From Candidatus Arthromitus sp. SFB-rat-Yit (GTDB lineage Bacteria; Bacillota; Clostridia; Clostridiales; Clostridiaceae), in contig NC_016012.1 of NCBI RefSeq assembly GCF_000283555.1, positions 810,001 through 842,000 of the forward strand: 32,000 bases of DNA, given 5' to 3'. Numbering within the stretch: position 1 is the first letter of the stretch; each line of letters begins with the position of its first letter. A program made the translations under genes and the position numbers. The notes under the pieces were generated by a model. The model saw only the letters and a program-made list of their open reading frames with translations. It had not been told where the DNA came from and ran no database searches. Below are positions 7,132-24,296 of this stretch, piece after piece.

Positions 7132-8073
7132 CTACACCTCACTCAAAACTTTTAAAGATCTATTTAAAGATGATTCATCTTCTATATTTAACACTGTTAC
7201 TTTTTTATCTATTTTCTTAACAAAACTTGATAAACTTTTCCCTGGGCCTATTTCAACAAAAGTATCAATTCCCATTCCAATAATTCTCAATATACTATCT
7301 TCCCAAAGAACAGAACTCATAATTTGATTAGACAGCAATTCACAAATCTTACTCATATCCATCTTTTCTGAAGTAACATTAGATATAACAGGAACTTTAA
7401 ATTCAGAATTAAATTCTGTATTCTCCAACTCTGTTTTAAATTTCATCGCTGCCTCTTTAAGAAAACTTGTATGGAAAGGTGCTTTAATTGGAAGTCTTAC
7501 ACTCCTCAAAGCTCCTTTATCCTTAAACATTTTATCTGCCATATCAAGTGCAACAACTTCACCAGAAACGACAATTTGAGAAGGGCAATTATAATTTGCA
7601 ATTTCCAAATGTCCATAAGACTTAACATCATCTATAACTTCCAATATTTTTTCCTTGCTTAATCCAATAACCGCTGTCATTCCATATAAATTTCCATCTA
7701 AAGAATTAACCATAAAATCTGCTCTTTTATTAACTAAAATAATCGCTTTTTCAAAATCCAAAGCACCTGAACACACAAGTGCTGAATACTCTCCCAAACT
7801 CAATCCAGCAGTACAAGATGGATTTATATTAACTAAACTTTTAAGTGCCTCAAGTATAGCAATACTTGTTGTCAATATAGCAGGTTGAGTTATTTTTGTA
7901 TCACTTATTTCATCCATGCTACCATTAAATATTTTATCAGAAAGAGAAAACTCTAAAATTTCATTACTTTTTTCAAATATCTTTCTTGACTCAACAAAAT
8001 TTTCGTAAAAATATTTTCCCATACCAACATACTGCGATCCTTGACCTGGAAATATAAACGCTACATTATTCAT
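7132..8073 (-). CDS. fabD: Malonyl CoA-ACP transacylase
   Basis: 313 aa. FPGQGSQ and the GLSLGEYSA active-site serine motif. Confidence 0.94.
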   Translation of the reverse strand: MNNVAFIFPGQGSQYVGMGKYFYENFVESRKIFEKSNEILEFSLSDKIFNGSMDEISDTKITQPAILTTSIAILEALKSLVNINPSCTAGLSLGEYSALVCSGALDFEKAIILVNKRADFMVNSLDGNLYGMTAVIGLSKEKILEVIDDVKSYGHLEIANYNCPSQIVVSGEVVALDMADKMFKDKGALRSVRLPIKAPFHTSFLKEAAMKFKTELENTEFNSEFKVPVISNVTSEKMDMSKICELLSNQIMSSVLWEDSILRIIGMGIDTFVEIGPGKSLSSFVKKIDKKVTVLNIEDESSLNRSLKVLSEV

Positions 8074-8097
8074 GATTTATTTCTCCTATGTTAATAA

Positions 8098-9075
8098 TTA
8101 CCATTCAATTAATATCGACCCATAAGTAAGTCCACCGCCAAAACCAACAAGTATAATCAAATCTCCCTTAGATAGATTTTGAGATTCGCTCAATTCAGTT
8201 AATGCAATTGGTATACTTGCCGCTGAAGTATTTCCATACTTATGCAAATTAATAAAAAATTTATCTACATCAATCTTTAATCGTTGAGAAGCTGATTCTA
8301 TTATTCTTTTATTTGCTTGATGTGGCACAATAAACTTAATATCTTTTATAGAAATATTATTGTTTTTGAGCAATACATCAATTCCTTCAACCATAGATGA
8401 AACTGCAAATTTAAATACTTCTCTACCATCCATATGTATACTAAAATCACTATTAACCGATTCACCCAATATGAAATTAGATATAGGAACAGCTGCAGAA
8501 ACTAAAGAATCAGATTTCTCCCCAACTGACCTTGTATATGTATCAACTATTTTATGTCCATTTTTAGATCTTTCAATATATGCAACACCTGCACCATCTC
8601 CAAACAAAACGCAGGTGTTCCTATCTTTCCAATCTATGATTTTCGATAACATTTCACTACCTATAACAATAGCATTTCTATATTTCTCGGATGATAAAAG
8701 AGCATCCGCCACAACAAGCCCATAAATAAAACCTGTGCATGCTGCATTTAAATCAAAAGCTGTAGCATTTGAAGCACCAATAGTTTTTTGAACTAAACAA
8801 GCACATGAAGGCGTGTTATTGTCAGGAGTAATAGTAGAAAAAATAATAAGATCTATATCTTTCGGATCCTTATTTAATTTATTTAATAATTTTTCTACTG
8901 ACTTAGCCCCCAACACAGATGTATTTTCTGTAGAAATACGTCTTTCTCTTATACCAGTTCTACTGTATATCCACTCATCACTTGTATCAACCATTTTTTC
9001 TAATTCATTGTTAGTTAAAATTCTATCAGGCACATACATACTCATACCTAAAATGCAATTACGTATATAATTCAT
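8098..9075 (-). CDS. fabH: 3-oxoacyl-ACP synthase III
   Basis: 325 aa. DTSDEWI, active Cys in LNAACTGFIYG, HQANKRI, GNTSAASIP. Confidence 0.94.
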   Translation of the reverse strand: MNYIRNCILGMSMYVPDRILTNNELEKMVDTSDEWIYSRTGIRERRISTENTSVLGAKSVEKLLNKLNKDPKDIDLIIFSTITPDNNTPSCACLVQKTIGASNATAFDLNAACTGFIYGLVVADALLSSEKYRNAIVIGSEMLSKIIDWKDRNTCVLFGDGAGVAYIERSKNGHKIVDTYTRSVGEKSDSLVSAAVPISNFILGESVNSDFSIHMDGREVFKFAVSSMVEGIDVLLKNNNISIKDIKFIVPHQANKRIIESASQRLKIDVDKFFINLHKYGNTSAASIPIALTELSESQNLSKGDLIILVGFGGGLTYGSILIEW

Positions 9076-9108
9076 TTAAAATCTCCTCAGATTGTAATTA
9101 GCATTTTT

Positions 9109-9137
9109 AGTATATTACATTATAAAATACATGTCAA
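9109..9137 (-). promoter_or_regulatory. Candidate sigma-A promoter for the fabH...accA operon
   Basis: Minus strand reads TTGACA (9137..9132), a 17-nt spacer, then TATACT (9114..9109). It lies about 34 nt upstream of the fabH ATG, which is preceded by GAGGAG. Confidence 0.45.
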
Positions 9138-9161
9138 CTCTTCCAGTTTTTTACATTTAAA

Positions 9162-10382
9162 TTAATATCTAAATAAAGGGAATTGTTCTGTTATATCTCT
9201 TACACATTTTTTAAAATATTCAGAATTTTTTCCTCTATCCTTAATTACACCATCTATAATATCTGCTATTAACAACATTTCATTCTCACCAAATCCCCTT
9301 GTTGTAACTGCTGCAGTACCAATTCTTATACCACTTGTAATTAAAGCCCCACGTGTATCAAAAGGTATGCAATTTTTATTAACCGTAATACCTATACTAT
9401 CTAATAACATTTCACATTCTTTTCCTGTTATATTTTTATTTGTTAGATCAATCAAAATCAAATGATTATCCGTACCATTGGATACTAATTTAAAATCTCT
9501 CTTTTTTAATTCTTCAGCCAACTTATTTGAATTTTTAATTATTCTTTTTGCATATTCCTTAAAATTATCACTCATAGCCTCTTTAAAACAAATTGCTTTA
9601 GCTGCAATCACATGCATTAAAGGACCCCCCTGAATTCCAGGGAATATAGCCTTATCAATCTTTTCTCCATATTCTTTTTTAGCAAGTATAGCTCCCCCAC
9701 GTGGACCACGTAAAGTCTTATGTGTAGTAGTTGTAACAAAATCTGCATATGGCACCGGATTTTCATGAACACCACCTGCTATAAGTCCAGCTATATGTGC
9801 CATATCAACCATCATATAAGCTCCAACCTCATCACAAATTTCTCTAAACTTTTTAAAATCAATTTTTCTAGCATATGCACTATAACCACAAACAATCAAT
9901 TTAGGTTTAACATTTAAAGCTAAAGTCCTAACCTCATCATATTCTATAACACCTGTTTCTTTATTCACTCCATAAAATTTAAAATTATAAGTCTTTCCTG
10001 AAAAATTAACCGAACTTCCGTGAGTTAAATGCCCTCCATGACTTAAATTCATTGATAAAATAGTATCATTGTGTTTCAAAACCGAAGAATAAACCGCCAT
10101 ATTAGCTTGTGATCCAGAATGTGGTTGCACATTTGCGTATTCAGCATTAAACAATAATTTCATCCTATTTATAGCCAAATCTTCAATTTTATCTACAACT
10201 TCACACCCACCATAATATCTTCTGTTTGGATAACCTTCAGCATATTTATTTGTTAAAATAGTTCCCATAGCACTTAACACATCATTACTAACAAAATTTT
10301 CAGAAGCAATAAGTTCTATATTATTAATTTGCCTATCCTGTTCATCTAAAATTAAGTTAGCTATTTCTCTATCTATTATCAT
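9162..10382 (-). CDS. glyA: Serine hydroxymethyltransferase
   Basis: 406 aa. ELIASENF, and [14 protein letters not shown] containing the PLP lysine. Confidence 0.96.
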
Positions 10383-16492: not shown

Positions 16493-17011
16493 CTACACAT
16501 CATATTTTACAAATGAATTAACATTATAATCTTTCAAAACATCTCTTCCACCAATTTTTTCTAGTTCTATAACAAAATCTAATTCTACAACTTTGCCCCC
16601 GGCTTTCTCTACTAGATCTGCCACAGCTTTAATTGTTCCACCTGTGGCTAATAAATCATCAATTATAGCAACTCTTGGATTATTTTCAAATGCATCTTTA
16701 TGTATCTCTAATGTATCTTTCCCATACTCTAAGCCATAACTTACCTCTATAGTCTTACCAGGCAATTTACCCTTTTTCCTTACAGGTACAAACCCAATTC
16801 CTAAAGCATACGCAACAGGCATTCCAAATATAAATCCTCTAGCTTCTGGTGCAACTATCAAATCTATATTTTTATTTTTCAAATTATCAACAATTAAATC
16901 TATAGTATATTTTAGTGTTTTCCCATCCCGTATAAGAGTTGTTATATCTTTAAAGCTTATTCCTTTTTTAGGGAAATCTTCAATAATTTCTATACTTCTT
17001 TTTAAATCCAT
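16493..17011 (-). CDS. apt: Adenine phosphoribosyltransferase
   Basis: 172 aa. PRPP-binding motif VAIIDDLLATGGT. The ATG and its GGAGG RBS lie inside the 3' end of the upstream gene. Confidence 0.95.
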   Translation of the reverse strand: MDLKRSIEIIEDFPKKGISFKDITTLIRDGKTLKYTIDLIVDNLKNKNIDLIVAPEARGFIFGMPVAYALGIGFVPVRKKGKLPGKTIEVSYGLEYGKDTLEIHKDAFENNPRVAIIDDLLATGGTIKAVADLVEKAGGKVVELDFVIELEKIGGRDVLKDYNVNSFVKYDV

Positions 17012-17841
17012 GATTTTTCCTCCATTTTATAATTCACCTCTTTAATCAAATATTTACATATTTGATTAGCCTTCAAAGAATTTGATACTGTAAGTAATTC
17101 AACTATTAATTTTGCATTTGTAATCTTATTTTTATTTATATATTCCGGATCAATAAAATTAATTAATTCATTAATAGTTATATTATTAGAGCAAGTTTTA
17201 ACAAGCTCACATAATCCATAATTCTTAGTATTTTTCAAAAAATAAGATCCTTCTTTTAAAAGCTTATAATTCTCACCATACACTTTAACATTATCATTAA
17301 ATAAACTTATAAAAACTAAATCTAAAAACTTGACCATACTCTTTAAATTATAAAATCTACTAATACCTTCTAAAATTTTATAAGTTAATGCTGGTAACGT
17401 TAAATCTTTAAATGAATATATACAATCATCTGAATATGGATTTATCAATATATATCTTGAAGAATTTAATATATCTGTTTCTTTATTTGAAATATTTATA
17501 ACTTTTATAGATAAATCTTTATCTATAATTTTATTTAATGAAAACACTATGTCTATCCTCATAAATTCAACATGATCGTTAAACTGTTTCTCATCAAACT
17601 CTTGTGTATCATCGTAAATATAATGATATACATTTAATTTCAAATATCGTAATGCTAATATTAAAATGGATGTAGATAATACGCCATCCAATGTTCCTGG
17701 AGCATAAATTAATATATTAGTATGTTTACTGATCAAATCATCAATTATATCAATTACTTCTTTTATACCATTAATTTTAAAAGGATTATAATTATCACCA
17801 ATATATCCCTTTTCAAAAACAAAATCACGATAATTTTCCAT
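17002..17841 (-). CDS. Short RecJ-like / DHH-domain protein with apparently degenerate catalytic motifs
   Basis: Occupies the recJ slot between secF and apt. By eye it aligns to the RecJ N-terminal DHH domain (ILIYAPGTLDGVLSTSIL; ILINPYSDD..YSFKDL; LDLVFISLFNDNVKVYGENYKLLKEG). It is only 279 aa long. I prefer ATG 17841 (GGAGGA 8 nt upstream) over the track's GTG 17862, which overlaps that RBS. Confidence 0.55.
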   Translation of the reverse strand: MENYRDFVFEKGYIGDNYNPFKINGIKEVIDIIDDLISKHTNILIYAPGTLDGVLSTSILILALRYLKLNVYHYIYDDTQEFDEKQFNDHVEFMRIDIVFSLNKIIDKDLSIKVINISNKETDILNSSRYILINPYSDDCIYSFKDLTLPALTYKILEGISRFYNLKSMVKFLDLVFISLFNDNVKVYGENYKLLKEGSYFLKNTKNYGLCELVKTCSNNITINELINFIDPEYINKNKITNAKLIVELLTVSNSLKANQICKYLIKEVNYKMEEKSWI

Positions 17842-17878
17842 AAATATAATCCTCCAAATCACTAGAAAAACAAGTTCA

Positions 17879-17970: not shown

Positions 17971-18831
17971 TTATTTATTTAATTTTCTATTTCCTTTAGA
18001 AGCCAACATTACCCATAACGGTGTAGCAATAAAGATAGACGAATATGTGCCTGAAATTATTCCAATTAATATGGGAAATGAAAATTCCCTTACACTAGGT
18101 ACAAAAATATAAACACAAAGCACTATGATAATAGTTGTAACAGATGTATTAATACATCTAACTAAACTTTGCTTTATACTCAAATTTGCAATATAGTCAT
18201 TAGATTTTCCTGTATGCAATTTCCTATTTTCTCTTATTCTATCAAATATAACTATAGTGTCATTAATTGAATATCCAACTATCGTTAATACTGATGCTAT
18301 AAATGGAGAATTTATCGGAACCATAAATATAGAATATGCACTTAATGTTATCAAAACATCATGTATCAATGCTATTATTGCAGCGATACCAAAATAAATT
18401 TCAAATCTAATAATTATATAAATAAGCATTCCTAATGTGGCTATTGCCAGGGCTATCAAAGCTCTTAAAGTAAGTTCTTTTCCTATTGATCCACTTATTT
18501 CAGTTTGATGTAATAAATTTGAATCCTCTAATGAATATTTTGTTTTAAGTTCATTAAAAAAACTAACAACTTTATCAGTTTCAAAATTTTTACTCCTAAC
18601 TTCAACTTGAGTTCCATTAATCTTTTTTGAAACAGCATCTTGAGAATATTTTGCTAATATTTCATCCACTTCTGACTTATCAAACTCTTTTCCAATATCT
18701 ATTAATACCGTTGTTCCGCCAACAAAATCAATACCTATATTTATTCCTCTATAAAAAAACATAGCAACACCGATTAATACGGTAATTATAGATATAGAAA
18801 ACCATATTTTATATTTTTTCATTATGTTCAT
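17971..18831 (-). CDS. secF: Protein translocase subunit SecF
   Basis: 286 aa, multi-TM. Motifs GIDFVGGT and SINDTIVIFDRIREN. Overlaps the secD 3' end. An alternative ATG lies at 18822. Confidence 0.93.
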   Translation of the reverse strand: MNIMKKYKIWFSISIITVLIGVAMFFYRGINIGIDFVGGTTVLIDIGKEFDKSEVDEILAKYSQDAVSKKINGTQVEVRSKNFETDKVVSFFNELKTKYSLEDSNLLHQTEISGSIGKELTLRALIALAIATLGMLIYIIIRFEIYFGIAAIIALIHDVLITLSAYSIFMVPINSPFIASVLTIVGYSINDTIVIFDRIRENRKLHTGKSNDYIANLSIKQSLVRCINTSVTTIIIVLCVYIFVPSVREFSFPILIGIISGTYSSIFIATPLWVMLASKGNRKLNK

Positions 18832-20113
18832 CTATAATCACTCCTTTACTTTTCTTATGTTCATTTTCATCAAATCCGTAGCTCCTCTTAGATCTTAATC
18901 CCATATTATAGAAAAGCTTAATCAAAAATCTAGTTATAACTATAGAACTAAACATACTTAGAACTATACCTATTAGTAGAGTTGTTGCAAAACCTTTTAC
19001 ACTACCTGTACCAATAAAATATAAAACTAGACCTGCTATTATAGTTGTAATGTTAGAGTCTAGGATAGAATTCATAGCCTTATCAAAACCGATTTTGATA
19101 GATACTTTAACTGACTTTCCCTTTGTTAATTCTTCCCTTATTCTCTCAAATATCAAAATATTAGAATCAATAGCCATTCCCAAAGTTAATAATATACCAG
19201 CTATACCTGGCAATGTCAGTACAGCACCTATAATTGCAAATACAAATAAAAACAAGATCATATATATCGCTAAAGAAAATACGGAAATAATTCCAGGAAA
19301 TCTATATCTAATAAACATAATGATTAATATAAAAACAAATCCTATTAAACCAGCCTTTATTGTATTTGGAAGAGATTCTGCTCCTAATGTCGGACCAACC
19401 TTATTCACAGATATAGTATTAAGTGTAACTGGCAATGCTCCTGATTGAATAATACTTGCAATTTTATTAGCCTCTTCAAAACTCATTGATCCTTCTATTA
19501 CTGCTTCTCCATCAGTTATTTGAGTATTAACCACAGGCTTTGTTAATATCTGGTCGTCCATACTTATTTCTATAATTTTATTTATATTTTTACCTGTGGC
19601 TTCAGCAAATTTTTTCGTGCCTTCATCAGTAAATTTTAGTTGTATTATTGCTTTCCCATCTTGCGTTAAAACTGCAGTAGCATTTTTAACATCGCTACCA
19701 GTGAGCAGTACATTTCCTTCTTCATCTTTAAAATTTAATTGACCCGTAGATGTCAGAGTTTTAACTATATCATTAGAATCAAATTCACCCGCAAGATCAA
19801 TTCTTATACGATTACTTCCCTCTATAGTAACAACAGGTTCGCTCAGTCCAAATTTATTAACTCTTAAAGATAATAACTCTCTAGTATTTTGAAGTGTTTC
19901 TTTGGTTACATTTTCATCAACTATTTCTTGTAAAACAGAAACTCCACCCTGAAGATCTAATCCCTTTAGTATAGAATCATTAAAATTCTTAAATTTGTAT
20001 CCTAAAATTTCAAATCCCTTAAATCCCCAAAATGTACAAAATAAAAATAATAATAACACTAAAATAAAAATAAATAGTGAGGATCCTTTCGAAGTAAGTT
20101 TATCTTTTTTCAC
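18809..20113 (-). CDS. secD: Protein translocase subunit SecD
   Basis: Multi-TM protein with a large periplasmic-type loop. Motifs GLDLQGG and AIDSNILIFERIREE. The track's TTG start (20128) lies on the GAGGAGG RBS. GTG 20113 (MKKDKLTSKG...) sits 6 nt after that RBS. Confidence 0.92.
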   Translation of the reverse strand: MKKDKLTSKGSSLFIFILVLLLFLFCTFWGFKGFEILGYKFKNFNDSILKGLDLQGGVSVLQEIVDENVTKETLQNTRELLSLRVNKFGLSEPVVTIEGSNRIRIDLAGEFDSNDIVKTLTSTGQLNFKDEEGNVLLTGSDVKNATAVLTQDGKAIIQLKFTDEGTKKFAEATGKNINKIIEISMDDQILTKPVVNTQITDGEAVIEGSMSFEEANKIASIIQSGALPVTLNTISVNKVGPTLGAESLPNTIKAGLIGFVFILIIMFIRYRFPGIISVFSLAIYMILFLFVFAIIGAVLTLPGIAGILLTLGMAIDSNILIFERIREELTKGKSVKVSIKIGFDKAMNSILDSNITTIIAGLVLYFIGTGSVKGFATTLLIGIVLSMFSSIVITRFLIKLFYNMGLRSKRSYGFDENEHKKSKGVIIDEHNEKI

Positions 20114-20159
20114 AATGTACCTCCTCAAATAGACTTATCCTATAGTAATAATAATTTTA

Positions 20160-21548
20160 TTAACTAGTCACTTTTTCCTTAGACTTTTCATATGCTTTTA
20201 ATGCTATAGCCATTTCAATTCTTTTTTTCTGTAACTTACATCCTATTTTATATGGATTTAATATAGAATTTGTAAATTCATGATTATTAGCCTGACATCC
20301 TCCACTACAATAAAATCTAGCCCAACACTTATTACAATCTTCCTTTTTATATATATTAGCTTCTTTAAATTCATTTATAATTTGGGGTTCTGATATTTTA
20401 TCCTTATACAAAGAATTTATATTTCCAATAACAAACTCTCTCTTACCAACAAATTGATGGCATGGATAAATATCACCACTTGGAGTAACAGCTATATATT
20501 CGAATCCAGCACCACATGCAGAAACTCTTTTGTATACACAAGGACCTCCTTGTAAATTTATATTATAATGATAAAAATTAACCTTTTTACCTTCATCAAT
20601 AGAATCTCTCAAATATCTATAAATTTTATCATACTCATCATAAATTTGTTCTAAATCTTCAAAGCGTATGGATATTTCCTCATTTTCTTTTACAACAACT
20701 GGTTCAAGAGAAATTTCCTTAAATCCTTTATCAACTAAATGTAAAAAATCATTTGAAAAATCTAAATTTTGATGCGTATAAGTGCCTCTTACATAGTATT
20801 CCTGACCTTCCTCTCTCCCATCTACAAGTTTCTTAATCTTATCAATTATAATATCGTAAGACCCAGTTCCTACCGCTGTCAATCTCATATTGTCATTAAC
20901 TTCTTTTCTACCATCTATTGACAATATTATATTTTTCATATTTTTATTTAAATATTCACTAATTTCATCGTTTAATAAAATTCCATTTGTTGTTAGTGTA
21001 AATCTTATGTTTTTATTAACTTTCTTCTCTATACTTCTTGCGTATTCTACTAATTTCTTTATCATATCAAATGCCATAAGTGGTTCACCACCAAATAAAT
21101 CAACTTCGATGTTATATCTTGGACCACTTTGGCTTATCAAAAAATCTAACGCTCTCTTAGCAACATCTAGAGTCATTATTTCTCTTTTTCCTTTATATTC
21201 GCCTTCATCTGCAAAACAATATTTACACTTTAAATTACAATCATGAACGACATTTAAGCACATTGCTTTCATATATTCTTGCTCATTATTTATTCTTACC
21301 TTCTCTTCATACATATCTTTCGTATACAAAACATTATCATTAATCAATTCTTGTATCTCTAATAAAACTTCATCTAAATCTTGTTTTAAGTATTTATCTC
21401 CAAATTTGTCCATAGCTTCATTTAATGTAAGTGGCTTGTCCGATCCCAATACATCATAAGTAATTTCATCAATTTCCATAAGAGATCCTGTGTTAACATC
21501 TAAAACATATCTTAAATCATCTATAAAAAATTTGTGAATCAATTCCAT
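20160..21548 (-). CDS. scfB: Radical SAM/SPASM thioether-forming SCIFF peptide maturase
   Basis: 462 aa. Radical SAM CNLKCKYC (CxxxCxxC). C-terminal auxiliary-cluster cysteines CVYKRVSACGAG...YPCHQ...CNKCWARFYCSGGCQANN. N-terminus MELIHKFFIDDLRYVLDVNTGSLMEIDEITYDVL is typical of this family. It lies directly downstream of a six-Cys 45-aa precursor ORF. Confidence 0.88.
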   Translation of the reverse strand: MELIHKFFIDDLRYVLDVNTGSLMEIDEITYDVLGSDKPLTLNEAMDKFGDKYLKQDLDEVLLEIQELINDNVLYTKDMYEEKVRINNEQEYMKAMCLNVVHDCNLKCKYCFADEGEYKGKREIMTLDVAKRALDFLISQSGPRYNIEVDLFGGEPLMAFDMIKKLVEYARSIEKKVNKNIRFTLTTNGILLNDEISEYLNKNMKNIILSIDGRKEVNDNMRLTAVGTGSYDIIIDKIKKLVDGREEGQEYYVRGTYTHQNLDFSNDFLHLVDKGFKEISLEPVVVKENEEISIRFEDLEQIYDEYDKIYRYLRDSIDEGKKVNFYHYNINLQGGPCVYKRVSACGAGFEYIAVTPSGDIYPCHQFVGKREFVIGNINSLYKDKISEPQIINEFKEANIYKKEDCNKCWARFYCSGGCQANNHEFTNSILNPYKIGCKLQKKRIEMAIALKAYEKSKEKVTS

Positions 21549-21570
21549 AATACTTTACCTCCGTAATCAT

Positions 21571-21606
21571 ATAAAAAATAAATAGACCGATCAAATCAGC
21601 CTATTT
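21571..21606 (-). terminator. Intrinsic terminator/attenuator between the SCIFF precursor and its maturase
   Basis: The minus transcript aaataggctgatttgatcggtctattt forms a 12-bp stem (two G-U pairs, 3-nt loop; 21580..21606). It is followed by ATTTTTTAT, and lies 22 nt upstream of the maturase RBS/ATG. Confidence 0.6.
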
Positions 21607-21662
21607 CAATACTTCCAAAAATTATCTGTCATATAGGTTGACAAATTGTAATTTATGCTCAA

Positions 21663-21800
21663 TTATTTTTCACAAACTATATTTGCTACTGTACAAGAGG
21701 TCTTACACGCAGATTGGCAAGAATTTGCACATTCTTTACAATTTGTATCTTTTATAGTATCTTTTATAGTATTTTTAACTAAAATTTTAATATGTTTCAC
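21663..21800 (-). CDS. scfA: SCIFF (six cysteines in forty-five residues) ribosomal peptide precursor
   Basis: Not in the ORF track. GGAGG-N8-GTG at 21800, stop TAA at 21665..21663. The product is (M)KHIKILVKNTIKDTIKDTNCKECANSCQSACKTSCTVANIVCEK, 45 aa, with Cys spacing C-x2-C-x3-C-x3-C-x3-C-x6-C. Confidence 0.88.
   Translation of the reverse strand: MKHIKILVKNTIKDTIKDTNCKECANSCQSACKTSCTVANIVCEK
21745..21772 (-). repeat. Perfect 12-bp tandem duplication inside the SCIFF leader
   Basis: The plus-strand unit atcttttatagt occurs twice in tandem (21747..21758 and 21759..21770). This encodes TIKD-TIKD in the leader peptide. Confidence 0.9.
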
Positions 21801-21831
21801 TAAAATTACCTCCAAAAATAAACTCCCCAAA

Positions 21832-21840
21832 ATTATAACA
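21832..21840 (-). promoter_or_regulatory. Extended -10 promoter element upstream of the SCIFF precursor
   Basis: Minus strand reads TGtTATAAT (TG at 21840..21839, TATAAT at 21837..21832), about 32 nt upstream of GTG 21800. There is no good -35 hexamer. It sits just downstream of the preceding gene's terminator. Confidence 0.4.
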
Positions 21841-21879
21841 TATTTAATTCTTTACATCTAGAATTATTATTTTCATAAA

Positions 21880-21924
21880 ACTATATAAAAAGTTCGATAG
21901 AATTAAATATTACTATCGAACCTT
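21880..21924 (-). terminator. Rho-independent terminator after the 642-aa gene
   Basis: 9-bp stem gttcgatag (21892..21900) / ctatcgaac (21913..21921), extendable by a G-U pair and two A-U pairs, with a 12-nt loop. It is followed by TTTTTATATAGTTTT on the minus transcript. Confidence 0.75.
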
Positions 21925-21940
21925 ATTACAATTTTATCTA

Positions 21941-23869
21941 TTAAATCTTTTCTGTTTCTGTAGTAGATTGTGGATTAGAATCATCAAATAAAAATTTCAC
22001 TTTTTTATCAAACTCATCTGAATTTACCATTTCGTTTGCAATCTTAATTAAGACTGATGAATCATCATTTTCTTCAGCAAATAACTCTTTATAACGATTA
22101 GTCCAAAATTCAAATCCAGCATCATCAGGCTCACGATTAACTATCACTCGATAAAGACCTTTTATTTTATCATCAACTGTTTTGTTTTTATTAGTAAATT
22201 CATTCTCAGATAAGAGGTTTATTACAAAACTTTTAGGTGATACAGTCTTATTTCCAATTTCATTTACCCAATAAGCAAATCCCACCTCATCAGCATCTCT
22301 ATCTAAAGCATTTCCATATACTTCAGCTACAAAATCTCTTACTTTATCAATACCACCTTTTGTTTTGAACTGTGATATATCAATAGTTTGATTAACAGAA
22401 TTTTCATCCTTATAAGTTATAGTAAGATTTTTGTATATCTTACTTGGAACAAGTCCTTCTAATTTAAGTCTAGATGTACCATCAAATGATACTTTTATTC
22501 CTTTAGTATTAATAGAAATATCTTTAGCTTTCTTAAATCTATCTATTAAAGTTTGGTTGCTTAAAAGAATTGAAATACTTGTATCTGATATATCTGACCT
22601 AGTTATATCAGTAGATGTTATACTTAATATCTCAGTTTTATTATTAGTCATATTATTAGAAGATGTTCCAGAGCTTGATTCTAAAGTTTTAAATGTTTGT
22701 CTAGAAATTTCATTACCCAAATTATCAAATAAAGCAGCAATATAATTTGTATTTTGAGATAAATTATTTATCGTATATGATTGCTTTTTATGTTCTGCTC
22801 CGTCTAAAACAAGTTTTTCCTTAACAGTTCCAGATTCTTCTCTAATCTCAAGAGTTAACGGATATTGTTTATTCCCATTTTTATCATTACCATTTGTTCC
22901 AAAAAAAACATCAAAAGTTACACTATTTGAATCAAGTCTTGACCTTTCAAAATTAAATGTATTAAGTTGTGTATTAAACGTAATATCTAATAATCCATCT
23001 GCTTCACTTATAAAATATTCATTATTTTGTTTATCTGTACCTTTAAGAGCAATACCAACAAAACAACTGTATCCACTTTGTAAATCGTTAAAAGTTAAGT
23101 CTTCAATTTTATATTCACCATTACCTATTTTGTCAACTTTAGCCGTTTGTTCCATTGCTTGCTGTGAAATAGCTATATGTCCAATTGTAATTTGAACATC
23201 CAAATTATCCAATTCAATAGATGTATTTAATAAACCAGATAAAGTTATAGAATCTTGTCCAATAACTTTACTTGTAAAATCAAATTTAATTCCGTCTTTC
23301 AATTGATCAAGATTCAAAATACCCTCATTAAATTTACATGAATTAAATGTAACTTGTGTATTAGAAGCTATATCAAACATCGGTTCATTTAAATCCTTAT
23401 TTGAAACCAACATCCCACTAATATTTAAAGGATTATTAGTTTCTATTCTTATTAAAGGACCTTTCACTTCATCATCTCTTGTTACTTCTAATAAATCATT
23501 AACATTTAAACTAGTAACATCATCACCTATTACTAAGGAACTATTATTACTAATTAAGATCTCTACAAGTTCTTCTTTTTTTGTTTTTTCTTCAATAGCA
23601 TCAACAATTTTTTTAGTTAATTTAACTTGTCCTATTATAATCAAAGACCCATTGTCATTTATTCCTTTAATAAAATCTTCTTCACTTGTTTCAGATGTAA
23701 TTTCTATTGGTTTTGATTCTGAAGGATTTCTATCATTTTTATTCTTTGAAACAACAGAATTTTGCATATTATTTGCAACTTCACTAGCCATAACATTAAT
23801 AGAATTAGGTACTAAAACTAGTCCAACCATAACACTTAAAAGTAACTTTGATATTTTTTTAAATAACAT
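21941..23869 (-). CDS. Secreted or cell-surface protein with two C-terminal DUF4214 repeats; function unknown
   Basis: 642 aa. N-terminal signal peptide MLFKKISKLLLSVMVGLVLVPNSINVMASE. Central beta-rich, Ig/FN3-like segments, judged by eye. Two DUF4214-type repeats (FVAEVYGNALDRDADEVGFAYWVNEI...SENEF and LYRVIVNREPDDAGFEFWTNRY...NSDEF). No LPXTG, SLH or choline-binding motif was seen. Confidence 0.7.
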   Translation of the reverse strand: MLFKKISKLLLSVMVGLVLVPNSINVMASEVANNMQNSVVSKNKNDRNPSESKPIEITSETSEEDFIKGINDNGSLIIIGQVKLTKKIVDAIEEKTKKEELVEILISNNSSLVIGDDVTSLNVNDLLEVTRDDEVKGPLIRIETNNPLNISGMLVSNKDLNEPMFDIASNTQVTFNSCKFNEGILNLDQLKDGIKFDFTSKVIGQDSITLSGLLNTSIELDNLDVQITIGHIAISQQAMEQTAKVDKIGNGEYKIEDLTFNDLQSGYSCFVGIALKGTDKQNNEYFISEADGLLDITFNTQLNTFNFERSRLDSNSVTFDVFFGTNGNDKNGNKQYPLTLEIREESGTVKEKLVLDGAEHKKQSYTINNLSQNTNYIAALFDNLGNEISRQTFKTLESSSGTSSNNMTNNKTEILSITSTDITRSDISDTSISILLSNQTLIDRFKKAKDISINTKGIKVSFDGTSRLKLEGLVPSKIYKNLTITYKDENSVNQTIDISQFKTKGGIDKVRDFVAEVYGNALDRDADEVGFAYWVNEIGNKTVSPKSFVINLLSENEFTNKNKTVDDKIKGLYRVIVNREPDDAGFEFWTNRYKELFAEENDDSSVLIKIANEMVNSDEFDKKVKFLFDDSNPQSTTETEKI

Positions 23870-23949: not shown

Positions 23950-23985
23950 AAATAAAAAAAGGAAAGCCTGAATTAACTTTCCCTT
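23950..23985 (-). terminator. Rho-independent terminator after yajC
   Basis: The minus transcript aagggaaag-N10-ctttccttt forms a 9-bp stem with one G-U pair. It is followed by a U-rich run (TTTTTATTTAT). It starts 6 nt after the yajC stop. Confidence 0.7.
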
Positions 23986-23990
23986 CTGTG

Positions 23991-24296
23991 TTACGCATTA
24001 TTAGACTCATTTTCAATTTTTTCTATAGATTCTGAAGCAATCGTTCCTATAGAATTTTTCAAAAAAGTTAATCTTGTTTTATCTGGACCTGTTTCTAAAA
24101 CCACTTCATTTTTATCATTATCTATTGAAATAACTTTAGCAACAATTCCACCTCTAGTAACAACCTTATCATTAACTTTTATATTATCCAACATTGATTG
24201 ATACTTCTTTCTTCTTCTTGTTTCTGGAAGTATCATTATTACATATAAAATTATTAAAAACCCTATAGGTATAAGTAGGTTAACAAAAGAACTCAT
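23991..24296 (-). CDS. yajC: Preprotein translocase subunit YajC
   Basis: 101 aa. Single N-terminal TM segment followed by RRRKKYQSMLDNIKVNDKVVTRGGIVAKV, typical of YajC. Located downstream of tgt. Confidence 0.9.
   Translation of the reverse strand: MSSFVNLLIPIGFLIILYVIMILPETRRRKKYQSMLDNIKVNDKVVTRGGIVAKVISIDNDKNEVVLETGPDKTRLTFLKNSIGTIASESIEKIENESNNA

Follow-up and report, generated by a model that had tools for sequence, protein, structure and literature searches.

A canonical SCIFF ranthipeptide gene pair at the yajC|secD junction of a segmented filamentous bacterium, with hints from its conserved neighbourhood

The window analysed here is a 32,000-nt stretch of the genome of Candidatus Arthromitus sp. 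SFB-rat-Yit (contig NC_016012.1, positions 810,001 to 842,000), a segmented filamentous bacterium (SFB) of the family Clostridiaceae whose genus is at present named Candidatus Neoarthromitus. Its minus strand carries a 45-codon peptide gene, scfA, followed directly by a radical SAM/SPASM enzyme gene, scfB. The two are a canonical, already known SCIFF ranthipeptide system, with ScfA as the precursor and ScfB as its maturase. The explanation that best fits the locus as a whole, and that very probably holds, is that such a canonical system sits at the ancient yajC|secD junction and works in the way proposed below. The SCIFF system of ScfA and ScfB, with its models TIGR03973 and TIGR03974, was reportedly first set out by Haft and Basu in 2011. 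Both SCIFF and ScfB are curated families (PMC5300114) for which a crystal structure and in vitro chemistry are available, and SCIFF is reported to be conserved across clostridial orders with at most one cluster per species (bioRxiv 10.1101/2025.02.12.637840). The original prediction, made on the window from its letters alone, was right to call the pair not new; taken by itself, the gene pair is a further example of a curated and structurally characterised system and changes nothing. SCIFF peptides are among the most widespread and conserved RiPPs (peptides made by ribosomes and modified after translation) in Clostridia, and their function is unsettled. On that function the linkage of scfAB to secDF, yajC and the TIGR04086 gene, which resists rearrangement, together with an attenuator-like hairpin behind scfA, hints at a modest lead.

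The scfA gene lies in a gap of 392 bp that separates the scfB start (21548) from the stop codon of the gene upstream (21941), and this gap had been predicted to hold a gene on the minus strand. The minus-strand sequence 21813..21663 indeed reads GGAGG-N8-GTG...TAA, as described, and its 45 codons give (M)KHIKILVKNTIKDTIKDTNCKECANSCQSACKTSCTVANIVCEK. The six Cys residues at positions 21, 24, 28, 32, 36 and 43 have the spacing C-x2-C-x3-C-x3-C-x3-C-x6-C. The assignment as a SCIFF precursor, for which a search with TIGR03973 had been proposed, passes with 68.8 bits (cut-off 50), and PF13165 gives 70.5 bits (cut-off 27). With E-values of 2.7e-19 and 1.1e-19 from these hidden Markov models (HMMs), the match is far above chance level. 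In a family alignment of 33 members all 19 invariant columns are kept in ScfA, including the N-terminal MKHI. The SCIFF core SCQSACKTSCTV-N--C, the six conserved Cys residues and the length of about 45 residues are all present. Only two residues depart from the family: Asn20, where at least 90% of the 33 aligned members have Gly, and Ile41, which is mostly Gln or Leu. The residues that are candidates for cross-linking in the characterised peptides are found as donor Cys32 and acceptors Thr34 and Thr37.

In the mechanical list of open reading frames (ORFs) the scfA frame runs further upstream to a TTG and is 55 aa long. This extended start was rejected, and GTG is the true start, because MKHI is the invariant N-terminus in the 33 members and two close relatives have ATG at the GTG codon. 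The codon-position pattern in a comparison of the window with three related genomes settles which strand is coding. Codon positions 1, 2 and 3 of the minus frame take 14, 6 and 105 of the 125 pairwise nucleotide differences, and 106 of the 119 differing codons are synonymous. scfA is a real gene under purifying selection. A reading that treats the 45-codon frame as a chance ORF and the 68-codon plus-strand ORF 21655..21861 as the true gene could point to the greater length of the plus-strand ORF in the mechanical list and to gene callers having passed over the minus-strand gene in five related assemblies. It retains practically no probability and is already refuted by the data, with minus-frame HMM E-values of about 1e-19, the substitution pattern just given, and a minus-strand promoter and ribosome-binding site. 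The plus-strand ORF was rejected as a gene; because the differences sit on position 3 of the minus frame and the HMM matches lie in that frame, it is an antisense shadow of scfA. The stored gene calls of the five assemblies (L097, L099, L100, L101 and L102) skip scfA, though it is present in each and 96–98% identical. For this peptide there is thus a systematic annotation gap in these public assemblies.

The start of scfB lies 114 nt past the scfA stop, well inside the 500 bp that PMC5300114 takes as the largest distance between a SCIFF precursor and its radical SAM maturase gene. ScfB scores 631.7 bits with TIGR03974 (cut-off 425), the second search that had been proposed, and contains the Pfam domains Radical_SAM, Fer4_12 and SPASM. 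Its best match among solved structures is CteB of Clostridium thermocellum (5WGG/5WHY), with E = 1.7e-155 and 51% identity over residues 1–454. The enzyme had been described as a 462-aa protein with CxxxCxxC and a C-terminal Cys cluster, and we find exactly this, as the motif C104-x3-C108-x2-C111 and seven C-terminal Cys residues. With the cluster ligands of CteB taken from PMC10177961, all ten Fe-S ligand Cys residues are kept in ScfB. C104, C108 and C111 of the radical SAM cluster align with CteB C104/108/111. C345, C363 and C418 align with the auxiliary cluster 1 ligands C344/362/413, while C405, C408, C414 and C437 align with C400/403/409/432 of auxiliary cluster 2. The alignment begins at ScfB residue 1 and so spans the N-terminal domain of CteB. 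NF040492, the exception model for ScfB-like orphans, gives 653 bits, which is under its cut-off of 855. ScfB was rejected as such an orphan maturase, the score being below the cut-off and scfA being adjacent. Among the other loci, only L004–L007 from Clostridium sp. metagenome-assembled genomes (MAGs) resemble the orphan group. Their radical SAM/SPASM genes (about 8001..9390) are 53–54% identical to the window ScfB, stand without a SCIFF gene or sec, yajC or tgt neighbours, and score 812–820 bits with NF040492, slightly under 855.

The characterised SCIFF examples are CteA/CteB (thermocellin, PDB 5WGG/5WHY) and Tte1186a/Tte1186. The window pair agrees with these systems in peptide length, the six Cys positions, the invariant residues, the lack of an accessory protease or transporter, the host class Clostridia, and a closely following maturase that is similar to CteB over its full length and keeps the ten Fe-S Cys residues. 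The differences are minor: Asn20, Ile41, the GTG start, and no TIGR04086 gene, in whose place stands a DUF4214 surface-protein gene. The closest loci come from Candidatus Arthromitus, Candidatus Dwaynia and Clostridiales MAGs, in keeping with a host of the class Clostridia. At species level, ScfB is 82–85% identical to that of the nearest genomes, which belong to Candidatus Dwaynia gallinarum, a Clostridiales MAG and an uncultured Candidatus Arthromitus. Three related systems can be set apart. The NF040492 'not_ScfB' orphans are very similar in enzyme sequence, and the window differs from them by its sub-cut-off score and the SCIFF gene directly upstream. PapA/PapB (freyrasin) and QhpD share the non-alpha thioether radical SAM/SPASM clade and the cluster layout; with their models, however, ScfB reaches only 283 and 254 bits, under cut-offs of 340 and 453. 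ScfA also lacks CX3D repeats, and by homology its acceptor is expected to be Thr rather than Asp/Glu.

Ranthipeptides are radical non-alpha thioether peptides in which the Cys sulfur is bonded to a beta or gamma carbon of the acceptor residue, a chemistry known for CteA. From homology to CteB and Tte1186, a mode of action for ScfB can be proposed (chemistry in PMC8326336, PMC8172795 and PMC10177961). A presumed N-terminal peptide-recognition (RRE) domain of ScfB would bind the invariant N-terminal part of ScfA. The enzyme would cleave S-adenosylmethionine at the C104/C108/C111 cluster and abstract a hydrogen from a side-chain. At least one non-alpha (gamma-carbon) Cys-to-Thr thioether would be formed, from Cys32 to Thr34 or Thr37, with the donor Cys held on auxiliary cluster 1.

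The signals around scfA suggest how the two genes might be expressed (Table 1). The extended -10 element TGTTATAAT precedes the scfA ribosome-binding site by about 20 nt. Its TG-n-TATAAT is invariant in the window and in the related loci L001–L003, and is found also in L099 and L101. Relatives have a -35 element TTGAAA that is missing from the window, because the insertion carrying the DUF4214 gene ends there. We infer that TGTTATAAT acts as a promoter, and note that promoter-like matches in the region are no commoner than in shuffled sequences. Past the scfA stop, the hairpin at 21606..21580 has a folding energy of -12 kcal/mol (z = -4.0) and is followed by UUUAUUUUUU. In the SFB-type genomes L001–L003 the hairpin and T-tract are the sole conserved part of the scfA–scfB spacer. 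Stem variation among them consists of G-C/A-U to G-U changes only, with pairing kept, and L099 and L101 have the hairpin in identical form. Immediately upstream of it, 42 nt are deleted in one relative. Among 48 dereplicated lineages, 32 have a scfA–scfB hairpin that reaches at least -8 kcal/mol and runs into a U-rich tail. Controls pass the same threshold in about 13% of cases, with 20 of 144 for coding segments of the same length and 17 of 144 for shuffled sequences. No comparable hairpin was found in any surveyed scfB–sec spacer, where only weak ones of -5.4 kcal/mol or poorer occur. The possibility that scfB has a promoter of its own behind the hairpin was considered and rejected. The sole hexamer match, 21594..21566, is implausible because transcription would start inside the scfB ribosome-binding site.

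At the other end of scfB, the distance of 46 nt from the maturase stop to secD and the lack of a hairpin, both pointed out previously, are as described: the scan finds no terminator in this junction, and folding is no better than that of shuffled sequence (z = +1.5). The spacer would be 31 nt if the TTG at 20128 were used as the secD start. The genes scfB, secD and secF lie on the same strand with short spacers and with neither a terminator nor an obvious promoter between them. Co-transcription of scfB-secD-secF is supported by sequence and comparison, and is not proven. The suggestion of an operon reaching into secDF is sustained for this junction by sequence and comparison, but it had overlooked the conserved hairpin and U-tract between scfA and scfB (21606..21580), which any model of the operon has to take into account. 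In the arrangement we propose, scfA would be transcribed from its own extended -10 promoter, downstream of the terminators behind yajC and behind the inserted surface-protein gene. The moderately stable hairpin and U-tract would stop most transcripts behind scfA, which would leave precursor mRNA in excess. The remaining transcripts would read through into scfB, secD and secF, the spacers of which are short and free of structure. Sequence and comparison establish the gene identities and the layout on which this proposal builds. In RiPP operons of the lantibiotic and subtilosin types, a stem-loop separates the precursor gene from the modification genes, and this is the expected means of keeping a high ratio of precursor to enzyme. 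The window shares with them a hairpin and U-tract right after a short precursor gene and ahead of an enzyme gene. Such operons normally run on into export or immunity genes, whereas read-through in the window would feed secD and secF.

For the comparative survey, 96 loci were collected (7 genome loci, 9 by exact look-up of two SCIFF peptides and 80 metagenome loci via the 33-member peptide alignment) and annotated with iterated HMMs built from the window proteins. Dereplication at 85% or higher ScfB identity left 50 ScfB clusters. The 33 lineages with both flanks available span a locus GC content of 28–58% and ScfB identities of 42–52% to the window. In 27 of these 33, scfB is followed by secD or secDF. 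Counted over the 36 lineages with at least 1.5 kb available downstream, secD or a fused secDF gene starts on the same strand no more than 300 nt past the scfB stop in 26, and in a further three it lies within 1.5 kb. The gap from scfB to the sec gene has a median of 18 nt in 27 lineages, is 21 nt or shorter in 18 of them, and is 0 nt or an overlap in 8. Of 41 lineages, 22 carry a TIGR04086 (DUF3792) gene no more than 1 kb upstream of scfA; 15 of these have it on the same strand, and in the other 7 it is divergent. At least one of secDF, yajC and TIGR04086 is found within 4 kb of the pair in 29 of the 33 lineages. These neighbourhoods are rearranged, with at least six gene orders among the 33, for example tgt-yajC-TIGR04086-scfAB-secDF-recJ, TIGR04086(-)-scfAB-secDF-tgt-yajC and TIGR04086(-)-scfAB-tgt-yajC. 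Loci of the Oscillospiraceae type keep yajC-TIGR04086-scfA-scfB even without secDF. The TIGR04086/DUF3792 membrane protein has 120–145 aa (e.g. L008 3921..4358, L011 5526..5948, L103 4170..4541, and many metagenome loci) and is a possible third member of the SCIFF system. In Pseudobacteroides (L008 4500..5867) the gene for a 455-aa protein that matches nothing in Pfam or NCBIfam stands between TIGR04086 and scfA, another lineage-specific insertion at the same junction.

The housekeeping cluster around the pair is ruvAB-queA-tgt-yajC-secDF-recJ-apt-relA. Clostridium acetobutylicum has the gene order of the window with a TIGR04086 gene in addition, and its short recJ-like gene is alike. In E. 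coli K-12 queA-tgt-yajC-secD-secF are contiguous, so that the yajC|secD junction which holds the clostridial pair is an old one: the genes flanking it are the same and in the same order, and Clostridia interpose scfA-scfB, usually with TIGR04086. The placement in the Sec locus, the absence of accessory genes and the presence of yajC nearby had been pointed out for the window. All are true here, but they are not local peculiarities; this is the usual arrangement in the surveyed Clostridia. A literature search returned no paper naming secD together with SCIFF or ranthipeptide, and we do not claim the synteny as unreported.

What the peptide does can be approached from this arrangement. We prefer to see in the product a single-copy, class-wide housekeeping peptide, rather than a diffusible antibiotic, whose most likely place of action is in or at the membrane and which would be expressed together with the SecDF-YajC accessory machinery. 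The usual, apparently transcriptional, fusion of scfAB to secDF, the linkage to yajC and TIGR04086 across rearranged orders and the retention in SFB make a membrane or secretion housekeeping role a testable idea. Several points weigh against this reading. Gene order that was simply inherited, with no functional tie behind it, could account for the linkage to secDF and yajC, and secDF was not found within 1.5 kb downstream of scfB in 7 of the 36 lineages. In C. acetobutylicum the scfB–secD gap is 254 nt. A secDF promoter inside scfB is possible, as consensus-like hexamers are present there, no commoner than in shuffles. The TIGR04086 gene is dispensable at the site because the SFB lineage has lost this neighbour. 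The survey is biased, with its 80 metagenome loci being those most similar to the window peptide and many of them from human gut. For CteA and Tte1186a a single cross-link has been demonstrated, and its position is disputed. Published knock-outs (Chen et al. 2020, as described in PMC8102284 and PMC8326336) point to extracellular signalling.

Whether the neighbourhood has any functional meaning is finely balanced. It may have none, if one insertion at yajC|secD in the ancestor of Clostridia has been carried along by inertia, and we regard this as a serious possibility that falls somewhat short of even. The contiguity of queA to secF even in E. coli, the whole ruvAB...relA order common to the window, its relatives and C. 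acetobutylicum, and the 4 of 33 lineages that carry the pair with none of secDF, yajC and TIGR04086 are all in keeping with it. It is harder to reconcile with the six or more rearranged orders in which scfAB stays beside secDF, yajC and/or TIGR04086, including those with tgt-yajC moved downstream or secDF gone. The scfB–sec gaps, mostly 21 nt or less or overlapping, also count against inertia and imply shared transcription at least. Between inherited gene order and a direct functional tie to SecDF-YajC, we take the two as about equally likely. A stronger form of the tie, in which SCIFF would be a constitutive cross-linked small subunit or regulator of SecDF-YajC (with TIGR04086), and the scfA promoter and leaky terminator the main driver of secDF throughout the class, is quite unlikely. 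If true, phenotypes of scfA or scfB knock-outs would be partly polar or secretion-related.

The role of the peptide had been called unknown. Its function is indeed still unsettled, but a quorum-sensing role was proposed in 2020. By the account in PMC8102284, sporulation and agr expression changed in C. beijerinckii when the precursor and radical SAM genes were disrupted (Chen et al. 2020, doi 10.1002/biot.202000136), and the phenotypes were taken as quorum sensing; PMC8326336 and bioRxiv 10.1101/2025.02.12.637840 list and repeat this role. The modified peptide would then be a secreted signal, and its place beside secDF would reflect export or coincidence. We consider this unlikely, since neither the window nor the surveyed loci have an exporter, leader protease, receptor kinase or regulator beside the pair. 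The neighbours (tgt, yajC, the DUF4214 protein, secD, secF, recJ-like, apt and relA) do not form a system of the agr or RRNPP type, and ScfA has no Sec signal sequence. Furthermore, 19 of the 45 positions, including MKHI, are invariant across lineages whose ScfB is 42–52% identical to that of the window, which leaves little room for species-specific signalling, and the gene is retained in an SFB-like lineage. The knock-out phenotypes could in part be polar on secDF, a possible confounder because scfB and secDF appear to be co-transcribed; as a practical warning, insertional knock-outs of either scfA or scfB may be polar on secDF.

A bacteriocin-type antimicrobial, as many radical-SAM thioether peptides are, is very improbable. 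ScfA is a Cys-rich thioether RiPP and its enzyme belongs to the superfamily of the sactipeptide antibiotic maturases; yet no immunity or ABC-transporter genes were found in the window or the surveyed loci, so that the pair does not form a bacteriocin cluster, and a peptide reported in one copy per species, widespread in Clostridia and nearly invariant in sequence is not what such a role would lead one to expect. The wide clostridial spread has itself been taken to argue against an antimicrobial role (PMC8326336). In sum the bacteriocin role is disfavoured, and a species-specific signal is awkward, because of the missing accessory genes, the invariant N-terminus, the near-invariant core, the limit of one cluster per species and the retention in SFB. 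The housekeeping peptide co-expressed with the SecDF-YajC machinery is the reading we favour.

Table 1. Positions of the pair, its expression signals and its neighbours in the window
Feature	Coordinates	Strand	Basis or remarks
scfA, 45-aa SCIFF precursor peptide	21663..21800	minus	GTG start 21800, TAA stop 21665..21663; HMMs
scfA ribosome-binding site GGAGG	21809..21813	minus	8 nt ahead of GTG; sequence reading
Extended -10 element TGTTATAAT of scfA, putative promoter	21832..21840	minus	sequence; conserved in relatives
scfA–scfB hairpin (21606..21580) with U-rich tail, putative partial terminator/attenuator	21570..21606	minus	terminator scan, folding, conservation
scfB ribosome-binding site GGAGG	21558..21562	minus	sequence reading
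scfB, radical SAM/SPASM SCIFF maturase, 462 aa	20160..21548	minus	TIGR03974, Pfam domains, CteB match
scfB–secD spacer, 46 nt, with secD ribosome-binding site GAGGAGG, no terminator	20114..20159	minus	scan and folding
secD	18809..20113	minus	TIGR01129 346 bits, cut-off 244
secF	17971..18831	minus	TIGR00966 282 bits, cut-off 160
Lineage-specific insertion: DUF4214 gene and terminator	21886..23869	minus	comparison with relatives
642-aa signal-peptide/DUF4214 protein gene	23869..21941	minus	PF13946, two C-terminal stretches matched
DUF4214-gene terminator hairpin and T-tract	~21923..21886	minus	-18.7 kcal/mol, z = -5.3
yajC terminator	23987..23956	minus	-13.3 kcal/mol, z = -4.8
yajC	23991..24296	minus	TIGR00739 56 bits, cut-off 44.2; PF02699 76.9 bits

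The minus-strand order of genes in the window is ruvA, ruvB, queA, tgt, yajC, the gene for the 642-aa DUF4214 protein, scfA, scfB, secD, secF, a short recJ-like gene, apt and relA. Within the 32 kb the pair has no protease, exporter, immunity or receptor gene as its neighbour, and no protease, exporter, receptor kinase, regulator or immunity gene stands beside it in the surveyed loci. Translation of secD more likely begins with the GTG at 20113, which GAGGAGG precedes by 6 nt, than with the TTG at 20128 of the mechanical ORF; secD and secF overlap by 23 nt (18809..18831).

No TIGR04086 gene was found in the window. The DUF4214 protein, apparently a hypervariable surface protein of SFB-type bacteria, occupies the position that TIGR04086 has in other Clostridia. 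Its gene is missing from the site in L001–L003, where the scfA promoter directly follows yajC and its terminator, and is present at the same site in the subclade of L097, L099 and L101. Only 5 homologues of the protein were found among 5.8 billion proteins. Between L099 and the window it is 41% identical, compared with 86–95% for Tgt, YajC, ScfB and SecD. Because of these few homologues and this low identity, the gene is a lineage-specific, fast-evolving insertion outside the SCIFF system. The comparison indicates that what is lineage-specific here is the loss of the TIGR04086 neighbour together with the insertion of a hypervariable surface-protein gene.

Downstream of secF, the recJ-like gene (17002..17862, minus strand) encodes 286 aa, and its stop overlaps the start of apt. 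Its match to RecJ is confined to the N-terminal DHH half, with 84.9 bits against a cut-off of 396.9 for TIGR00644. The short form is found also in C. acetobutylicum (289 aa, L103 8880..9749), while the protein at this position has about 585 aa in many surveyed Clostridia.

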